Origin: an uncultured Muribaculaceae bacterium
Lineage (GTDB): Bacteria; Bacillota_I; Bacilli_A; RF39; UBA660
Assembly (NCBI GenBank): GCA_964370615.1
Contig: CAYJJY010000002.1
Location: 5,208-41,117, forward strand
DNA length: 35,910 nt
Direction: 5' to 3'
Shown here: piece by piece, positions 1 to 34,620 of the stretch
Layout of the letters: the number at the start of each line of letters is the position of its first letter
Position numbering within the stretch: position 1 is the first letter of the stretch
Made by a program: the position numbers and the translations under genes
Notes under the pieces: model-generated
Databases searched by the model: none
What the model was told of the DNA's origin: nothing
What the model saw: the letters and a program-made list of their open reading frames with translations, nothing else

Positions 1-3000
1 GGTTTTACTGTATCTAATTTAAAGTTTTCAGTACATTTTGTTGTTGTATTATAACCGTTTGTAACTGCTACACAACCTTTTAATGTTGCTGAATCTTGTG
101 TTAAATCAAAAGTATTTGTTGTTAAATCAATTGTTGGTGTACAATCAGTTCCATCAACAGAAACACAATATTTAGCTGTTTCTGTTGATTTTAAATCTGA
201 TAATGTAACTGTAATATGTTCATTTATCCATGTATTAGCTGTTTTATTAGCTGTTAATGTGAATTCTGGTGTTGGAGCAACTACATTATAATTTACTGGT
301 AATGATTTAACATTTCCTGCTTCATCTGTTACTGTGTAAACTACTTGTTTGTTATTTCCTGGTGTTCTTGTATCAAGAACTAATTCATCAGCTTCATTAC
401 GGTATACATCCCCTGTTACAGTGAATGAAGTAATTGGGCTTATTTCAAATGGACTACCAAAACCACTTACAAATTTATTTGCATAAACTTTGCTATTAAC
501 TTCAAATGTATTATCAGTTAAATTTCCAGTAGTTAATTCTGGCGCTGATTTATCTAATTTGTATGTTTCACATTTTGTAGTACTTAATCCATCAGTCGTT
601 GTAACTGTTACACATACATTACTTAAAGCAGTTTCTTCAGTAATGTTGATTGTTGTTCCAACTGTATTTGGAGTACATTCATTACTATTAATACAATAAG
701 TAATTGTATCAGTTGATTCAGTACCTACTATATTAAAGTTAAAATCAGTATTATTCCATCCAGCATTATTCGCATCAATATCTCTTTGAATTGTAAATTC
801 TGGATTGTTTTTAATAATAATATTTATTGTTTTTGTTTTAGAGTTTCCAGCCATATCTGTTGCTTTGTAAGTAACTTTATATGTGTTTGGTGTTGTAACG
901 TCTATGTTTTTTGTATTTAATACAATACCATTAGCATCAATTCCAGAAACCACTAATTTATTATTTGAACCATTATTATCTTCTACAGTTACTCCTGTTA
1001 ATAAAGCATTTGTAATTTCTTCAATTGAAGTGTTTGTAGCAAATACCATATTATCTAAAGCATTAATTCCTGAGAAATTAGGTCCTTTTTTATCTAATTT
1101 AAAGTTTTCTGTACATTTAGTAGTACTTTCACCATATGTATTTGTAACTGTTGCACATAATTTTGATGAATCTGATTCTAAATTCATTTTAATTACATTT
1201 GAAGTTGTTTCAATAGTTGGTGTACAAGTTGCTTCTGTTGTTAAACAATATTTAATATTATCAGAAGTATTAGTACCATTAATTGTAATTTCGAAATTTT
1301 TTCTTGCCCATCCATTTTCATTAACATTTGCATTATTTGTAAATGTTAATTCTGGAATTGGGTTTGCTACTGTAAATTTAACTTCCGTAATAGATACATT
1401 ACCTGCTTCATCAGTTAAAGTGAAAATAGCTGTTTTATCACCTGGTTCTGAAGTATTTAATTTTGTAGATTCACCTTCATTTTTAATAACATCACCTGAT
1501 ATTACTAATGTTGGATTACTTAAATTATCATTCATCCCTGATGCAATATAACTTGCCCAAACTTCTTCTTGGAATGTAAATGTTTGGTTTTGTTTAACGT
1601 CAACCATCCAAGGTTTTGTTGTATCAATTCCAAATGATTTATCATAGCATGCTTCAGTTACTTTACCTGCATTATCTGTTACGATAGCACATGCTTTGTG
1701 ATTTTTGTTTTCTTCATTGAAAACAATGTTAATCATTCCATTACCAAAATGTGATTCTGGGTAGTTTCTGTAAATACATTCTTCTGTTGAATAAGTTTTA
1801 CAAACTTGAACTGATGCAATACCTGTATTACTATTATCAGTTATATCTAATCTGATAACTGTTTCTTGGTTAGCCCAGTTATTTTCATTAATAGTTTCTT
1901 TTAAATCATAGAAATTTAATGTTGGTTTTGGAGCATCTACAGTGAATTTAACTTCTGTTACTGTTTTATTTCCAGCTGCATCTGTTAAAGTGTAGATTAC
2001 TGTTTTTTCACCAGCACTTGTTGTATCTAATTTAATTTCATCACCTATTGTAGTAACATTTCCTGTTATTACTAATGATGGGTTTGTTAAATTATCTGCT
2101 ATATTAGAAACTAATACATCAGCATTAACATCTTCATTAATATTAAATGTTTGATTATTTAAAATATCCATTGTTGGAGCTATTGTATCTAATTTGTATA
2201 AATCAGAACATGCTTCTGTCTTGTTCCCAGCTAAATCTGTTGCTACAACACAAACTTTGTTAGTTTCTCCTTCTTGGAATATTTTAACTCTTTTTGTTTG
2301 TTCCATGTCATTTTTTGGCACGCAACGTCCTGTATTATTACAGAATAATGCTTGGTTGAAATCTTCTCCAACTACTGTTGCAGTTATGAAGAATGCTTCA
2401 TTAGCCCATCCATTTTCATTGAAAATATTTGATGCTTCACCTTCTAAAGCAAATTCTATTACTAAAGGTGTTTTATCAATATTGTATGTTTCTGAACATT
2501 TTGTATTTGATATACCAAATTTATCAGTTACAGTTACACATGTTTTGATATTTTCAGACTCTTCATCTAAAATTATTTTATCAGTATATTCCATATCTGG
2601 AGTACATGTTTCTTCCGTTGTAACACAATATTTAGCTGTATTATCATTTAATCCATCAATTGTTATTTCAACATTTTGATTTGTTGGTAATTCATTGTTA
2701 ACATTACCATTTAATTCGAATTCTGGTAAAGCTTTAATTACAACGTAAATTGTTGCAGTAGTTTGGTTTCCAGCATTATCTTCTACTGTGTAAACTACTG
2801 GGTAAGTACCTTCTTTAGTTGTATCTACTCCATCAGTATTTAATGTAATTCCATTTGAGTTAATATTTGAAACATTATTTTCACCAGCTTCTGTATTATC
2901 TTTTGCTAGTACATCTGTTAATAGTTTCTCTTTGATATCATTGATATCTGTACCTTCTTTGAAAATATTAATCAAATGATTATCTACACCTGTAAAAACT

Positions 3001-3575
3001 GGTGCTTTTGTATCTAATTTAAAATTTTCTGTACATTTTGTTGCTTCGTTAGTACCATCTGTAACTGTTACACACATTTTACTAGAAATAGATTCTAATT
3101 CCATTTTAATTGCATCAGTTCCATCAATACTTGGTGTACAACTTTCTTCACTTGTTACACAGTATTTAACTGTCATGTTATCAGCTAATCCTGAAACTGT
3201 GATTGTAAAGTTTTCTTTTGCCCAACCTTCATTATTTAATTCAGCATCATTTGTTAATGTGAATTCAATAGTGTTGTTATCATCATTGTTATCATTGTTG
3301 TTATTATCATTGTTGTTATCATCATTATTATCATTGTTGTTATCATCATTATTATCATTGTTGTTATCATCATTGTTGTCGTTGTTGTCATTGTCATTGT
3401 CATTGTTGTTATTGTCATTGTTGTTGTCGTTGTTGTCATCATTGTTGTTATCATTTATATCAGAACCACCTTGGTTTCCAACTGGTGTTAACTCATCACC
3501 TGGATTGGCAAACGTAAAGATGAATAAACTGAAAAAGATAAATAATATAATGGCAACGATTTTCTTTTTACTCAT
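1..3575 (-). CDS. Large secreted modular repeat surface protein, N-terminal part only (ORF leaves the window at position 1; at least 1191 codons)
   Basis: ATG at 3575-3573 lies 6 nt after GGGGGA (3587-3582). Hand translation gives MSKKKIVAIILFIFFSLFIFTFA/NPGDEL, a Sec signal peptide. Stretches I checked triplet by triplet (1-182, 1560-1620, 3000-3020, 3450-3464) have no tta/cta/tca in the minus reading frame. A stop anywhere would have produced a listed ORF starting at 3575. The four + strand ORFs here all share one frame (start = 1 mod 3), as expected for antisense shadows of a single long gene. Confidence 0.85.
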   Translation of the reverse strand, partial: MSKKKIVAIILFIFFSLFIFTFANPGDELTPVGNQGGSDINDNNNDDNNDNNNDNNNNDNDNDNNDNNDDNNNDNNDDNNNDNNDDNNNDNNNNDNNDDNNTIEFTLTNDAELNNEGWAKENFTITVSGLADNMTVKYCVTSEESCTPSIDGTDAIKMELESISSKMCVTVTDGTNEATKCTENFKLDTKAPVFTGVDNHLINIFKEGTDINDIKEKLLTDVLAKDNTEAGENNVSNINSNGITLNTDGVDTTKEGTYPVVYTVEDNAGNQTTATIYVVIKALPEFELNGNVNNELPTNQNVEITIDGLNDNTAKYCVTTEETCTPDMEYTDKIILDEESENIKTCVTVTDKFGISNTKCSETYNIDKTPLVIEFALEGEASNIFNENGWANEAFFITATVVGEDFNQALFCNNTGRCVPKNDMEQTKRVKIFQEGETNKVCVVATDLAGNKTEACSDLYKLDTIAPTMDILNNQTFNINEDVNADVLVSNIADNLTNPSLVITGNVTTIGDEIKLDTTSAGEKTVIYTLTDAAGNKTVTEVKFTVDAPKPTLNFYDLKETINENNWANQETVIRLDITDNSNTGIASVQVCKTYSTEECIYRNYPESHFGNGMINIVFNEENKNHKACAIVTDNAGKVTEACYDKSFGIDTTKPWMVDVKQNQTFTFQEEVWASYIASGMNDNLSNPTLVISGDVIKNEGESTKLNTSEPGDKTAIFTLTDEAGNVSITEVKFTVANPIPELTFTNNANVNENGWARKNFEITINGTNTSDNIKYCLTTEATCTPTIETTSNVIKMNLESDSSKLCATVTNTYGESTTKCTENFKLDKKGPNFSGINALDNMVFATNTSIEEITNALLTGVTVEDNNGSNNKLVVSGIDANGIVLNTKNIDVTTPNTYKVTYKATDMAGNSKTKTINIIIKNNPEFTIQRDIDANNAGWNNTDFNFNIVGTESTDTITYCINSNECTPNTVGTTINITEETALSNVCVTVTTTDGLSTTKCETYKLDKSAPELTTGNLTDNTFEVNSKVYANKFVSGFGSPFEISPITSFTVTGDVYRNEADELVLDTRTPGNNKQVVYTVTDEAGNVKSLPVNYNVVAPTPEFTLTANKTANTWINEHITVTLSDLKSTETAKYCVSVDGTDCTPTIDLTTNTFDLTQDSATLKGCVAVTNGYNTTTKCTENFKLDTVK
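3273..3455 (-). repeat. In-frame imperfect tandem repeat (24-bp unit tcattgttgttatcatcattatta and variants) encoding 61 consecutive Asn/Asp residues
   Basis: The minus-strand codons are only AAT/AAC/GAT/GAC from just after GGSDI (3456-3470) to just before TIEF (3261-3272). The 24-bp unit is visibly reiterated around 3300-3380. Confidence 0.85.
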
Positions 3576-3619
3576 ACGATATCCCCCTATAAAATATGGC
3601 TTTCCACCACTTAACAATT

Positions 3620-3648
3620 ATACTAACATAATTTTAATAATTTGACAA
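3620..3648 (-). promoter_or_regulatory. Sigma-A type promoter of the surface-protein gene
   Basis: Minus strand reads TTGTCA (3648-3643), a 17-nt spacer ending in TGT, then TAGTAT (3625-3620). It sits about 45 nt upstream of the ATG. Confidence 0.5.
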
Positions 3649-23079: not shown

Positions 23080-23103
23080 AAAAAAGAAGAATCTCTTCTT
23101 CTT
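23080..23103 (-). terminator. Intrinsic terminator after the pilin-LRR gene
   Basis: Minus strand AAGAAGA-AGAGAT-TCTTCTT followed by a T-run. Confidence 0.7.
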
Positions 23104-24467
23104 TAAGGTTTTACTATAAAATTAACATTACTTGCTTTATTGGAACTGGAATTAAACTTTTCTACTTCTAATTGTGTTTTGGCATAGGCTTCTGTTAAGT
23201 TTATTGTTTCAAAAAACATTTCTTCCATATCTTCTACGTTACTCAAATCAAAACTACTTAAATCCAACTTTTTTAAACTTGTGGCTTCAGCGAACATTTT
23301 ATACATGGTAATGACATTTGAGGTATTAAAATTAGTCAAATCTATTGTTTCAATACTGGAAACAGTATGAAACATTCCATGCATGTATTTAACATTACTA
23401 GTATCAAAACTACTTAAATTGATGTTAATTAAATTTTTTGAAGCTCCAAATAAGTGAGCCATATTAACTACTTTACTTGTGTTAAAATTAGATAAATCTA
23501 ATTCTGTAACATTTAAATAACCAAATGTAAAGTACATTTCAGTAACATTACTGGTATCAAAACTACTAACATCTAGGTTTGTTAAACTACTTGCATTATA
23601 AAACATAGCTGTTAAGTTAACTACATTACTAGTATTGAAATTACTTAAATCTATATCAGTTAAACTACTAGCATTGTAAAACATTTGGGCCATATTAGTA
23701 ACATTGTCAGTTTTTATATTTATTAAGTCTACTTTTTCTAAACTAATGGTATTACTGAACATACTTGACATATCTGTAACATGTGATGTGTCATAAACTT
23801 CATTAAAATTTATTTCTTCAAGTTTGATAAAATTGCAAAACATTGATTTGTTTTGAGTTGCATTGCAAACACCACCTTGAATAGGAAAAGCAGAAATAAT
23901 TCCATCTGTTTCAATATTTAAAATTACTTGTTCCTCTTTTTCAATAATATATCCAACAACACTATGATTTCCTTCTAATGAGAAATCCCATTTTATAGCT
24001 GCAGTTTCAAATTCAGTTGATTTTGTTGAGTAAAAGTTTATATGTGTTATTTTTTCACGATAATCTCCTATTTGTTTTTGAAAATTATCGGCACTTAGCA
24101 TTGCATAAGATGGAACTTGGCAACTTTCTGAGTATTCGAATTGATATTGTTTCATAGTTACTTCCCATGAATATAAAATACATCCTTCTAACACATCGCC
24201 TGTCATAGGATTTGAAGGAAGTTCGGTTATAATTCCAACCTCTTTTAAGTCTTGAAACTGTAGTGTTTTTTTTGCACTACTAAAACCTAATGAGTATTGT
24301 GAGGCATATTTTACTGCATGATCTAATAATGTATCTACTTGCATGTCATAAGCTGATTGTTGTGAAGTTATAATAGTTTTATTTACTATTGGAACTATTA
24401 CTGCTAGGATAATTCCTAAAATTATTATAACTGCTAATAATTCTACTAATGTAAATGCTTTTTTCAT
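23103..24467 (-). CDS. Prepilin-type N-terminal domain protein fused to a BspA-family (DUF285, 26-residue repeat) leucine-rich-repeat surface domain
   Basis: MKKAFTLVELLAVIIILGI is a class III (type IV pilin-like) leader with the conserved Glu at +5. The C-terminal half is built of D.SNFNTSNV.NM..MF.....L..-type repeats. Confidence 0.85.
   Translation of the reverse strand: MKKAFTLVELLAVIIILGIILAVIVPIVNKTIITSQQSAYDMQVDTLLDHAVKYASQYSLGFSSAKKTLQFQDLKEVGIITELPSNPMTGDVLEGCILYSWEVTMKQYQFEYSESCQVPSYAMLSADNFQKQIGDYREKITHINFYSTKSTEFETAAIKWDFSLEGNHSVVGYIIEKEEQVILNIETDGIISAFPIQGGVCNATQNKSMFCNFIKLEEINFNEVYDTSHVTDMSSMFSNTISLEKVDLINIKTDNVTNMAQMFYNASSLTDIDLSNFNTSNVVNLTAMFYNASSLTNLDVSSFDTSNVTEMYFTFGYLNVTELDLSNFNTSKVVNMAHLFGASKNLININLSSFDTSNVKYMHGMFHTVSSIETIDLTNFNTSNVITMYKMFAEATSLKKLDLSSFDLSNVEDMEEMFFETINLTEAYAKTQLEVEKFNSSSNKASNVNFIVKP
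23187..23855 (-). repeat. About nine tandem 25-26-residue LRR units (coding repeat)
   Basis: The periodicity is visible in the protein (aa ~205-427) and in the DNA as recurring aacattac...gtattgaaatta-like blocks. Confidence 0.8.
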
Positions 24468-33249: not shown

Positions 33250-33500
33250 ATGCTCTCACCTATTATTTTTTCGATTTCCTCTGTTGTTTTTTCGCCTACT
33301 ATTCTAGTTATTTCTGTACCTTCTTTTTCTAGTATAAATACTGGTAACTTATCACCTATATTATAATTACTTACTTCATCATCAAAGTCATAATCATATT
33401 CTATTGATTCTAAGTTATATTTTTTTATAATTTCATCTATTCTTGGTCTCATAATTATACATGATCCACACCAAATAGCACTGATTCTAATTAACTTCAC
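33246..33500 (-). CDS. Thioredoxin family protein (WCGSC active site)
   Basis: 84 aa with SAIWCGSC. GTG start with AAGGAG 7 nt upstream. There is a 4-nt ATGA overlap with the downstream gene. Confidence 0.8.
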   Translation of the reverse strand: MKLIRISAIWCGSCIIMRPRIDEIIKKYNLESIEYDYDFDDEVSNYNIGDKLPVFILEKEGTEITRIVGEKTTEEIEKIIGESI

Positions 33501-33504
33501 TTAA

Positions 33505-34620
33505 TCACTCCTTTATTAATTGTTGGTAACATTTTTTAAAACTTTGTTTAAATATTTCTATTTCTTTTATTGTTGTTAAATGAGATAAACTAATTCTGAT
33601 ACTCGTTTTTGCTCTTTGTTCATCATTTGTAAGGGCATATACTGATTTCGACATTCCACCTTTTGAACATGCTGTTTGAGTTGATATATATATATCATGT
33701 TGTTCTAGGGCATGTAACATTGTTTCTGGTTTTACGCCTTTTATGCTAATATTTAAAATATTAGGTACACAGTAGTCATTGCTGTTGATATAAACATTTT
33801 GATAACTTTCTAAGTAAGTTTTTATTTCATCATTTAATTTTTTGATATGAAGAGGATTTCTTTGTTCTTCAATTAATCTAATTGCTTTAGAAAATGAAAC
33901 TATCAAGGCTGTTGTTGGGGTTCCACTTCTATATATTGTTGTACTTTTACCACCACTTATTAATGGTTCTAGTGTTATATTTTCTTTTTTATATAACATT
34001 CCAATTCCTTTTAGACCATATATTTTATGAGCTGTAAATGACGCTAAATCAATATTGGTTAAATCGATATTTAATTTACCTAAGGCTTGAGTAGCATCGA
34101 CGTGAAAGAAACACTTATTATAATCTTTTAATATTAATCCAATTTCTTCAATTGGTTGAATTATTCCTATTTCACTATTTACGGCTGTAATACTTACTAA
34201 AATTGTTTCTTCTGTTAGTAGTTGTTTTAAATGTTTTATATCTACTCGACCATGTTTATCAGTATCAACAAAATCTACTTTGAAACCTTTTTTTTGTAAA
34301 TAACTAATCGGACCATATATTGAAGAATGTTCGAAATTGGTTGTTATTATATGTTTACCTCTGTTTTTGTATTTTTCACCTATTCCTTTGATTACTAAAT
34401 TATTAGATTCAGATGCTCCTGATGTATAAATTATTTCACTTTTTTTTATTTTTAATATATTTGCTATTTGATTAGTAGCTTGTTCTATAATGTTGTAAGC
34501 TTCTGTTCCTAAACGGTGTAACGAGTTAGGATTTCCAATAAAATCTTTAGTTACATCACAAAATGTTTTTAAAACTTCCTCATTTACTGGAGTAGTTGCT
34601 GAATAATCTAAATAAATCAT
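33505..34620 (-). CDS. Cysteine desulfurase family protein (class V aminotransferase, NifS-like)
   Basis: IYLDYSATTP start, PLP-lysine context FTAHKIYGLKG, and an active-site Cys in STQTACS. The stop is TGA. Confidence 0.85.
   Translation of the reverse strand: MIYLDYSATTPVNEEVLKTFCDVTKDFIGNPNSLHRLGTEAYNIIEQATNQIANILKIKKSEIIYTSGASESNNLVIKGIGEKYKNRGKHIITTNFEHSSIYGPISYLQKKGFKVDFVDTDKHGRVDIKHLKQLLTEETILVSITAVNSEIGIIQPIEEIGLILKDYNKCFFHVDATQALGKLNIDLTNIDLASFTAHKIYGLKGIGMLYKKENITLEPLISGGKSTTIYRSGTPTTALIVSFSKAIRLIEEQRNPLHIKKLNDEIKTYLESYQNVYINSNDYCVPNILNISIKGVKPETMLHALEQHDIYISTQTACSKGGMSKSVYALTNDEQRAKTSIRISLSHLTTIKEIEIFKQSFKKCYQQLIKE

Follow-up and report, generated by a model that had tools for sequence, protein, structure and literature searches.

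What kind of surface structure would a gut bacterium build from a giant exported protein in which modules with four ordered cysteines alternate with modules that have none? This question is raised by the left end of a 35,910-nucleotide (nt) stretch of DNA, hereafter the window (C2:5208-41117, that is, contig CAYJJY010000002.1 of GenBank assembly GCA_964370615.1), from an uncultured bacterium of GTDB lineage Bacillota_I; Bacilli_A; RF39; UBA660. The host assembly comprises 1.16 Mb in 115 contigs at 26% G+C and is 81% complete. The best named matches of the ClpC encoded in the window (58-66% identity) come from metagenome-assembled genomes (MAGs) of uncultured gut Bacilli, among them 'Acholeplasma sp. 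CAG:878', 'uncultured Tenericutes UMGS1271' and Ca. Pelethosoma. An earlier note, made from the letters of the window, had proposed that positions 1-3575 encode, on the minus strand, a giant secreted protein of four-cysteine (Cys4, 'A') and immunoglobulin (Ig)-like ('B') modules. Our analysis of this gene, which we call the fibre gene, indicates that it probably specifies a long exported fibre of Cys4 and B-type Ig-like beads that would be stapled by disulfides and carry its working end at the C terminus.

An open frame of alternating modules

A single minus-strand frame is open from window position 3617 down to 3. Exact translation from the ATG at 3575-3573, the start named in the earlier note, gives 1191 residues, and the frame runs on to position 1 without a stop in any of its 1191 codons. 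A frame this long in DNA of 26% G+C cannot have arisen by chance, and the minus-strand frame at 1-3575 is part of a real gene. The GGGGGA ribosome-binding site named in the earlier note does lie 6 nt 5' of the ATG (3587-3582), and the entries of the open reading frame (ORF) track in this region proved to be antisense shadows: three plus-strand ORFs (883-1551, 2194-2679 and 3175-3645) of 156-222 amino acids (aa). An alternative genetic code or a recoded stop is unneeded, because translation table 11 already yields dense coding.

Cut at the recurring '...D(K)TAP' boundaries, the translation falls into the order A-B-A-A-B-A-B-A-B-A-B-A, the same seven A and five B modules that the hand translation had given. 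Each A module (87-104 aa) has exactly four cysteines, all in invariant columns of the alignment, and the five B modules (84-93 aa) have none (cysteine density 4.35% in A versus 0% in B). The proline after Cys2 and the aspartate of the 'KLD' motif are also invariant in the A modules, which are 21-55% identical to one another and thus derive from old duplications. Near-identical DNA at A-module ends recurs at 11, 1091 and 3011 with 0, 0 and 1 mismatches, where chance would be expected to give none. The features of the gene are listed below in window coordinates.

1-3575, minus strand: window part of the fibre gene, codons 1-1191, with 597 further known codons left of the scaffold gap (open frame; gap sequence; 65% identity to the relative P0010 after the gap)
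3507-3575, minus strand: predicted signal peptide or signal anchor MSKKKIVAIILFIFFSLFIFTFA with a conserved (T/A)-F-A↓N/G motif and predicted cleavage before NP (kept in relatives)
3273-3455, minus strand: Asn/Asp-rich low-complexity linker, aa 41-101 (AAT/GAT triplet repeats, repeat family D1)
3000-3272, minus strand: A1, Cys4 Ig-like module, aa 102-192 (alignment; AlphaFold2 model with pLDDT 96.1 and seven strands)
2724-2999, minus strand: B1, DUF5011/HYR-type Ig-like module, aa 193-284 (best PF16403/HYR stretches at aa 241-279)
2463-2723, minus strand: A2, Cys4 module, aa 285-371 (alignment)
2175-2462, minus strand: A3, Cys4 module, aa 372-467 (alignment; weak OmpL47-type match, E = 0.14)
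1923-2174, minus strand: B2, Cys-free Ig-like module, aa 468-551 (alignment)
1611-1922, minus strand: A4, Cys4 module, aa 552-655, with the 'D.S.TGI' turn retained before Cys1 (alignment)
1353-1610, minus strand: B3, Cys-free Ig-like module, aa 656-741 (alignment)
1080-1352, minus strand: A5, Cys4 module, aa 742-832 (alignment)
801-1079, minus strand: B4, Cys-free Ig-like module, aa 833-925 (alignment; best NF047446 stretch at aa 869-921)
540-800, minus strand: A6, Cys4 module, aa 926-1012 (alignment)
267-539, minus strand: B5, Cys-free Ig-like module, aa 1013-1103 (alignment)
3-266, minus strand: A7, Cys4 module, aa 1104-1191, its last two residues cut by the scaffold gap (alignment; gap sequence)
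3582-3587, minus strand: Shine-Dalgarno-like GGGGGA (sequence reading)
3620-3648 (L006 8855-8827), minus strand: promoter-like TTGTCA-17-TAGTAT with a TG extension, about 45 nt 5' of the ATG (consensus match only)

Promoter-like sites across the region were in total no more numerous than in shuffled sequences.

The N terminus is hydrophobic, in agreement with the Sec signal peptide called in the earlier note, and is predicted to be either a signal peptide or a signal anchor. Its first ~37 residues are ~80% identical to those of the relative P0016 (window 3507-3575 versus L101:6001-6070), in proteins that are ~33% identical overall. The codons of the two segments differ synonymously and the upstream DNA is unrelated, which points to purifying selection on the hydrophobic N terminus and rules out recent recombination as its source. 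At the linker, the ortholog P0003 has a Gly/Thr/Ser-rich tract in place of the Asn/Asp-rich one. The imperfect AAT/GAT array of the linker (14 overlapping copies according to the repeat finder) is the only truly repetitive tract of the gene and a plausible place for length variation or assembly compression.

Continuation across a scaffold gap

The left edge of the window is not a contig end but abuts a run of 100 N (C2:5108-5207); the assembly has 20 such runs, each 10 or 100 N long. The earlier note had suggested extending the contig leftwards to find the C terminus; past the gap the frame is open for 597 more codons, to a stop at C2:3314, which brings the known codons of the whole gene to at least 1,789, plus whatever the gap conceals. 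Because 100 N is a scaffolder's placeholder length, in-frame continuity across it proves nothing alone. The join is supported by the full-length relatives P0003, P0010 and P0016, all from other assemblies, which share the order at the junction and are colinear to the coiled coil: their last Cys4 module is followed by a half-domain of 65-85 aa with a two-Cys insert and then by 'D.LSG...'. P0010 is 65% identical to the post-gap part over 597 aa, and both flanks are open right up to the edge of the gap. No DNA repeat inside the gene is longer than 66 nt (83% identity), which makes large-scale repeat collapse unlikely. Judging from the relatives, the gap probably hides about 200-260 nt and the whole protein would measure about 1,850-1,900 aa.

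Directly after the gap we found the tail of one ordinary Cys-free repeat and a complete second one ('GNNNWY...DTTSGL...TATDIAGN...IDQEAP'), followed by a third Cys-free repeat with a two-Cys insert and a B-like module. This part also holds an eighth Cys4 module, divergent from the others, whose long helical insert is conserved ('FCMPGQE.CQLN.ELNSN.ID.LI..YIPDE...VAEATNEDIC'). The C-terminal 131 residues form a coiled coil with no proline, one glycine and 22 isoleucines that dominate heptad positions a and d, and the protein ends ...RIENILNNM. The translation thus shows a very long, exported protein of ~17 Ig-like beads (seven A, five B, three ordinary Cys-free, one B-like and the eighth Cys4) and then a coiled coil, with about half of the beads of the Cys4 type.

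The insert in the post-gap Cys-free repeat at about C2:4330-4480 has its own cysteine pair (QKQCSNLPLVGNLCANL); in the relatives, the repeat that corresponds to the gap carries another two-Cys insert (C-x7-13-C). Such small loops of the disulfide type keep recurring as additions in this protein family.

The Cys4 module is an offshoot of a known superfamily

The earlier note had described the B modules as DUF5011/HYR-type Ig domains, and both models score above their gathering thresholds: PF16403 (Bact_surface_Ig-like, formerly DUF5011) matched three stretches with 48.8 bits against a threshold of 27 (E = 7.5e-13), and HYR (PF02494) reached 25.3 bits against 21.7 (E = 1.9e-5), overlapping PF16403 at aa 241-279. 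The two models describe related folds.

The A module had been left without a family, and there it stands: none of the eight A modules had a significant match in Pfam or NCBIfam, and a profile search of PDB sequences returned chance matches only (E >= 0.25). The best sub-significant matches were to an OmpL47-type domain (A3, E = 0.14) and Glucodextran_B (0.008). The OmpL47-type model NF047446 matched A3 alone, at 12.6 bits against a cut-off of 40, and none of the other seven; the 41.5 bits that NF047446 gives to the whole protein derive from B4 and further regions outside the A modules. PF23237 (HYR_4C, 'HYR-like domain with 4 cysteines') matched no A module at E <= 10 and appeared only on a Cys-free post-gap repeat, at 13.8 bits. 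The modules do not belong to a common Ig family with variable cysteines either; their cysteines are conserved family-wide.

We modelled A1 with AlphaFold2 from a 14-row alignment to which the window contributed its seven A modules, the P0003 locus five and the P0004 locus two. The model has seven beta strands (pLDDT 96.1, pTM 0.84), and a Foldseek search of the PDB with it returned only Ig-, FnIII- and PKD-type sandwiches (TM 0.4-0.65), with FnIII, PKD, CD4, Fc-receptor and GhpA Ig-like domains as the top matches and none at E <= 0.001. As modelled, the A module shows the fold of an Ig-like sandwich with no close solved relative. Profile comparison with hhalign connected it to canonical Cys-free repeats taken from P0005, P0004, P0003 and the fibre protein's own post-gap part (probability 96.1%, E = 3e-9, 73 columns): the two profiles align at the 'NxxGW' start, at the 'TD.AGN' centre and at the 'KLDKTAP' end, and not at 'YC-x6-C-TP'. 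At the level of profiles this similarity is remote homology, not membership of a curated family, and it shows the A module as a remote, Cys-bearing homologue of the Cys-free 'GW..D..SG..D.AGN..D.T.P' Ig repeats rather than as a new fold. The A module is a new, definable, lineage-restricted offshoot of a known domain superfamily.

Cysteines are lost in pairs

The four cysteines are invariant in 14 of 14 aligned A modules. Searching 1.84 billion representative proteins with the A profile gave 428 matches at E <= 0.001 and 138 at E <= 1e-10, and we counted cysteine patterns in the 337 module instances, from the top 148 proteins, that cover all four positions. Complete modules (CCCC) account for 272 instances, CCxx for 37, xxxx for 11 and the loss of a single cysteine for 17; neither xxCC nor CxCx occurs among the 337. 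Modal spacings are C1-x6-C2 and C3-x13/14-C4, and proline comes directly after C2+1 in 92% of the modules. Paired loss is what two independent disulfides predict, so the pattern supports C1-C2 and C3-C4 bonds and disfavours a four-ligand metal site. The earlier note had suggested domains stabilised by either disulfides or metal; paired loss favours the first and disfavours the second.

In the A1 model, cysteine placement was read from the secondary structure and not from distances: C67 and C80 are in register on adjacent strands (61-71 and 76-80), and C38 and C45 close the loop after strand 34-40. A bias towards even numbers of cysteines is an indicator for disulfide-forming species (Daniels et al. 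2010, PMC2823432). In the host's own genome, proteins with one N-terminal hydrophobic segment have 53 even and 31 odd cysteine counts versus 283 even and 320 odd in proteins without such a segment (Fisher p = 0.007), a crude sorting of exported-type from cytoplasmic proteins that uses the hydrophobic segment and not a signal-peptide predictor. From the sequence patterns and the model together, we infer that the A modules are held by two disulfides each. The C1-x6-C2 bond would close a short loop after strand C, and the C3-x13/14-C4 bond would cross-link the last hairpin of the module. A literature search on disulfides in surface proteins of RF39 found nothing relevant.

Search for an oxidation machinery

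DsbA (PF01323), Thioredoxin_4 (PF13462) and VKOR (PF07884) were not found in the host genome at its 81% completeness. A wider search in 30 genomes of the genus, nine with a completeness of at least 90%, gave no Thioredoxin_4 or VKOR either, and control genomes gave the expected responses. The host does encode, at C21:2772-3557 (minus strand), a 261-aa protein that has a membrane anchor at its N terminus and consists of two thioredoxin-like halves bearing C-D-Y-C and C-I-Y-C. Its nearest families, below their cut-offs, are the PedC/BrcD bacteriocin-maturation disulfide isomerase (E = 2.4e-11) and the pilin-assembly isomerase TrbB/TraF, and it is kept in 28 of the 30 genus genomes. As a dedicated oxidase the double-thioredoxin protein gains no support from co-occurrence in the sample of the order, where it is present in 3 of 10 genomes with the Cys4 module and 22 of 191 without. 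It is a reasonable candidate oxidase that lacks co-occurrence support.

A thioredoxin-like ORF of ~84 aa also lies in the window itself (33261-33512, minus strand), with a WCGSC motif; it seems to start at a GTG that closely follows an in-frame TAA, and is probably a short thioredoxin of the ordinary kind.

Distribution and reuse in pilins

Within the genus, 20 of 24 genomes have the A module, in up to ~24 copies each; it was also present in 8 of the 98 genera of a 201-genome sample of the order and in 3 of 350 genomes of a class sample, the window's own included. By these homology searches it is shown to be restricted to a lineage of small-genome gut Bacilli, in which it appears as a reusable stalk element. 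In the host's own genome, Cys4 modules occur in proteins with a type IV pilin leader ('KGFTLVELLAV...') and DUF285/leucine-rich-repeat-type ends, on contigs C22, C51, C100, C88 and C1, as well as in two N-anchored proteins of 1,190 aa on C49. These paralogues on C22, C51, C100, C88 and C1 have the class III G/A-FTLxE signal of pilins; the N terminus of the fibre protein, MSKKKIVAIILFIFFSLFIFTFANP, does not, and it is therefore no modular type IV pilin. Among the top 148 global matches, 119 have at least one CCCC module, 64 have pilin-type N termini, 45 have a signal peptide or anchor, and one has LPXTG.

Type IV pilin-like leader proteins (K-G/A-FTL[VI]ELL) are very numerous in this genome, being encoded in the window at 23103-24467 (minus strand) and on C22, C51, C1, C34, C35, C63, C6, C7 and C41. 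Many are large and Cys-bearing, and several have Cys4 modules as stalks.

A search of 5.8 billion proteins gave only five further members of the fibre family proper, defined by the conserved C-terminal module and the coiled coil, all of them singletons from NCBI MAGs, and searching species-representative genomes with the whole fibre protein found no related locus. The five relatives lie in different housekeeping neighbourhoods, P0010 and P0154 alone being syntenic, and their loci have no conserved partner, secretion, sortase or glycosylation gene.

Genes next to P0010, P0016 and P0004 (L100, L101 and L014) include the sporulation-associated CotE, SpoVG, YabP and Spore_GerQ. Judging by these gene sets, spore formation is possible in members of this gut lineage with its reduced genomes.

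Anchoring and function

The leftward extension ends in the coiled coil and not in one of the anchors that the earlier note had listed. We found no LPXTG motif, C-terminal transmembrane segment, S-layer homology (SLH) domain or choline-binding/cell-wall-binding (CWB) module in the fibre protein; sortases are present in the genome, and the protein lacks the LPXTG, hydrophobic segment and basic tail of their substrates. The two sortase genes of the host indicate a walled cell and, together with the predicted signal peptide, are consistent with the Gram-positive exoprotein that had been proposed. The C-terminal 400 aa are the best-conserved part, at 44% identity to P0003 and 65% to P0010, against 28-32% in the array. 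We modelled this region with AlphaFold2, with P0010 as proxy and a 5-row alignment (pLDDT 54.6), and used only the secondary structure.

From its architecture we infer that the protein is a cell-surface fibre or adhesin. An Ig domain is ~3.5-4 nm long, which would give a stalk of ~60-70 nm; disulfides would stiffen its A modules and shield it from gut proteases. The disordered Asn/Asp linker could serve as a wall-spanning tether if the N terminus is retained. The conserved eighth module and the coiled coil would form the binding, working or assembly end, which may be oligomeric or trimeric; isoleucine at both a and d positions of a coiled coil favours trimers.

Weighing the alternatives

The fibre described here could in principle be a product of the assembly, if a scaffold misjoin had placed two genes, or the pieces of a broken one, on either side of the 100-N gap and the 1,822-codon reading were an artefact. 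The gap length is a placeholder, so that the open frame across it carries no weight, and the gap does sit just after the DNA motif that occurs three times in the gene. Against a misjoin, three full-length relatives in other assemblies keep the same order across the exact junction and stay colinear to the coiled coil, the flanks are open to the gap edge, and the intragenic repeats, at no more than 66 nt and 83% identity, are short; we regard a misjoin as highly improbable. Another alternative concerns the A modules, whose cysteines might bind metal, for example in a Cys4 zinc site, or remain free thiols instead of forming two disulfides. It would suit a reducing habitat and a lineage in which DsbA was not found in the genome, nor Thioredoxin_4 and VKOR in those of the genus, and Ig strands C, F and G share one sheet, so that the four cysteines could be near each other. 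A four-ligand site would not, however, tolerate the retention of two cysteines seen in 37 CCxx modules, set beside 17 single losses and no xxCC or CxCx; the C-x6-C and C-x13/14-C spacings are not zinc-knuckle-like, the model places C3 and C4 in register on strands that neighbour each other in a hairpin, and the exported proteins show the even-Cys bias. Metal or free thiols are on this evidence distinctly unlikely.

Alternatively, the protein might be released to the medium or form part of a surface coat or matrix, with a coiled coil that self-assembles rather than binds a ligand. The conserved signal-peptidase-like motif at the N terminus suggests cleavage, no LPXTG, SLH, CWB or C-terminal transmembrane segment was found, and an LPXTG-like end occurs in just 1 of the 148 family proteins. 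Other Cys4-module proteins, however, are clearly attached to the cell or to pili by pilin N termini or N-terminal anchors, the disordered spacer right after the hydrophobic segment resembles a wall-spanning tether, and the hydrophobic segment is under purifying selection relative to P0016. Release or a coat is a possible outcome that we think rather unlikely.

Several points weigh against a disulfide-stapled fibre held at the cell surface. The gene spans an unclosed scaffold gap, and the predicted model of the C-terminal region is poor at a pLDDT of 54.6. Support for the disulfides is indirect and comes from paired loss, in-register strands and the even-Cys bias. The host is presumably anaerobic and lives in a reducing habitat; neither DsbA nor Thioredoxin_4 nor VKOR was found in its genome, and the sole candidate oxidase does not co-occur with the Cys4 module outside the genus. 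We recognised no C-terminal anchor that could keep the protein on the cell after cleavage of the signal peptide, and no domain for binding a ligand; the name adhesin comes from the architecture.

Beyond the single gene, we put forward tentatively, as a possibility that falls short of probable, that an anaerobic, reduced-genome lineage of gut Bacilli evolved its own disulfide-stapled Ig module as the universal stalk of pilus-tip adhesins and giant fibres, and folds it oxidatively outside the cell without enzymes of the DsbA/DsbB type or VKOR, possibly by means of the double-thioredoxin protein. If true, the 'cysteine exclusion' rule that applies to the exported proteins of Firmicutes would have an exception here.

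Comparison with known systems

Giant Ig-repeat surface proteins are common, and the fibre gene itself is therefore unsurprising. Its B modules are members of the PF16403 and HYR families, to neither of which the A modules give a match. The closest comparison for the A module is with the canonical Cys-free repeats, covered in part by NF047446 and Big_13 (PF19077/DUF7743), which have the same size (~80-90 aa), the same Ig-like sandwich and the same N-terminal 'NxxGW', central 'TD.(A)G(N)' and terminal 'KLD(K)TAP' motifs, and which stand next to A modules within the fibre protein and within P0004. Unlike these repeats, the A module has four conserved cysteines, arranged as two pairs, together with a 'YC-x6-C-(T)P' loop, goes undetected by curated models (at best 12.6 versus 40 bits) and is confined to one small lineage. 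It is a cleanly definable family without a curated model, with the signature W...YC-x6-C-(T)P...C-x13/14-CS..YKLDKTAP and 428 representative proteins, and could be added to domain databases, which would improve the annotation of uncultured gut Bacilli.

Surface-fibre modules with intradomain disulfides are also found in the Ig-like pilins of Actinobacteria (FimP/SpaA type, folded by MdbA/VKOR; PMC3485203). Those pilins are sortase-polymerised, carry LPXTG and occur in aerobic hosts with a known oxidase and VKOR, whereas the fibre protein has no LPXTG and no VKOR or DsbA was found in its host. The host lies on the Firmicutes side, where cysteine is usually avoided in exported proteins; aerobic Firmicutes exclude it from them (Daniels et al. 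2010, PMC2823432). Paired cysteines and an even-Cys bias, without known Dsb or VKOR machinery, suggest extracellular disulfides where they were thought to be avoided, and the A module offers a concrete substrate on which to test this. To us the most interesting aspect of the locus is that an anaerobe on the Firmicutes side, with no known Dsb machinery, is likely to form disulfides outside the cell.

The third comparison is with modular type IV pilins, an established class in which many grafted modules have no database signature (Raynaud et al. 2021, PMC8179133). Paralogues in the host's own genome and 64 of the 148 top family members place the Cys4 module between a pilin N terminus and a distal domain. 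Pilins of this class have a class III leader, and the fibre protein has instead an ordinary signal peptide or anchor. With the same Cys4 module in modular type IV pilins and in N-anchored fibres, this lineage builds its surface from a small kit of parts.

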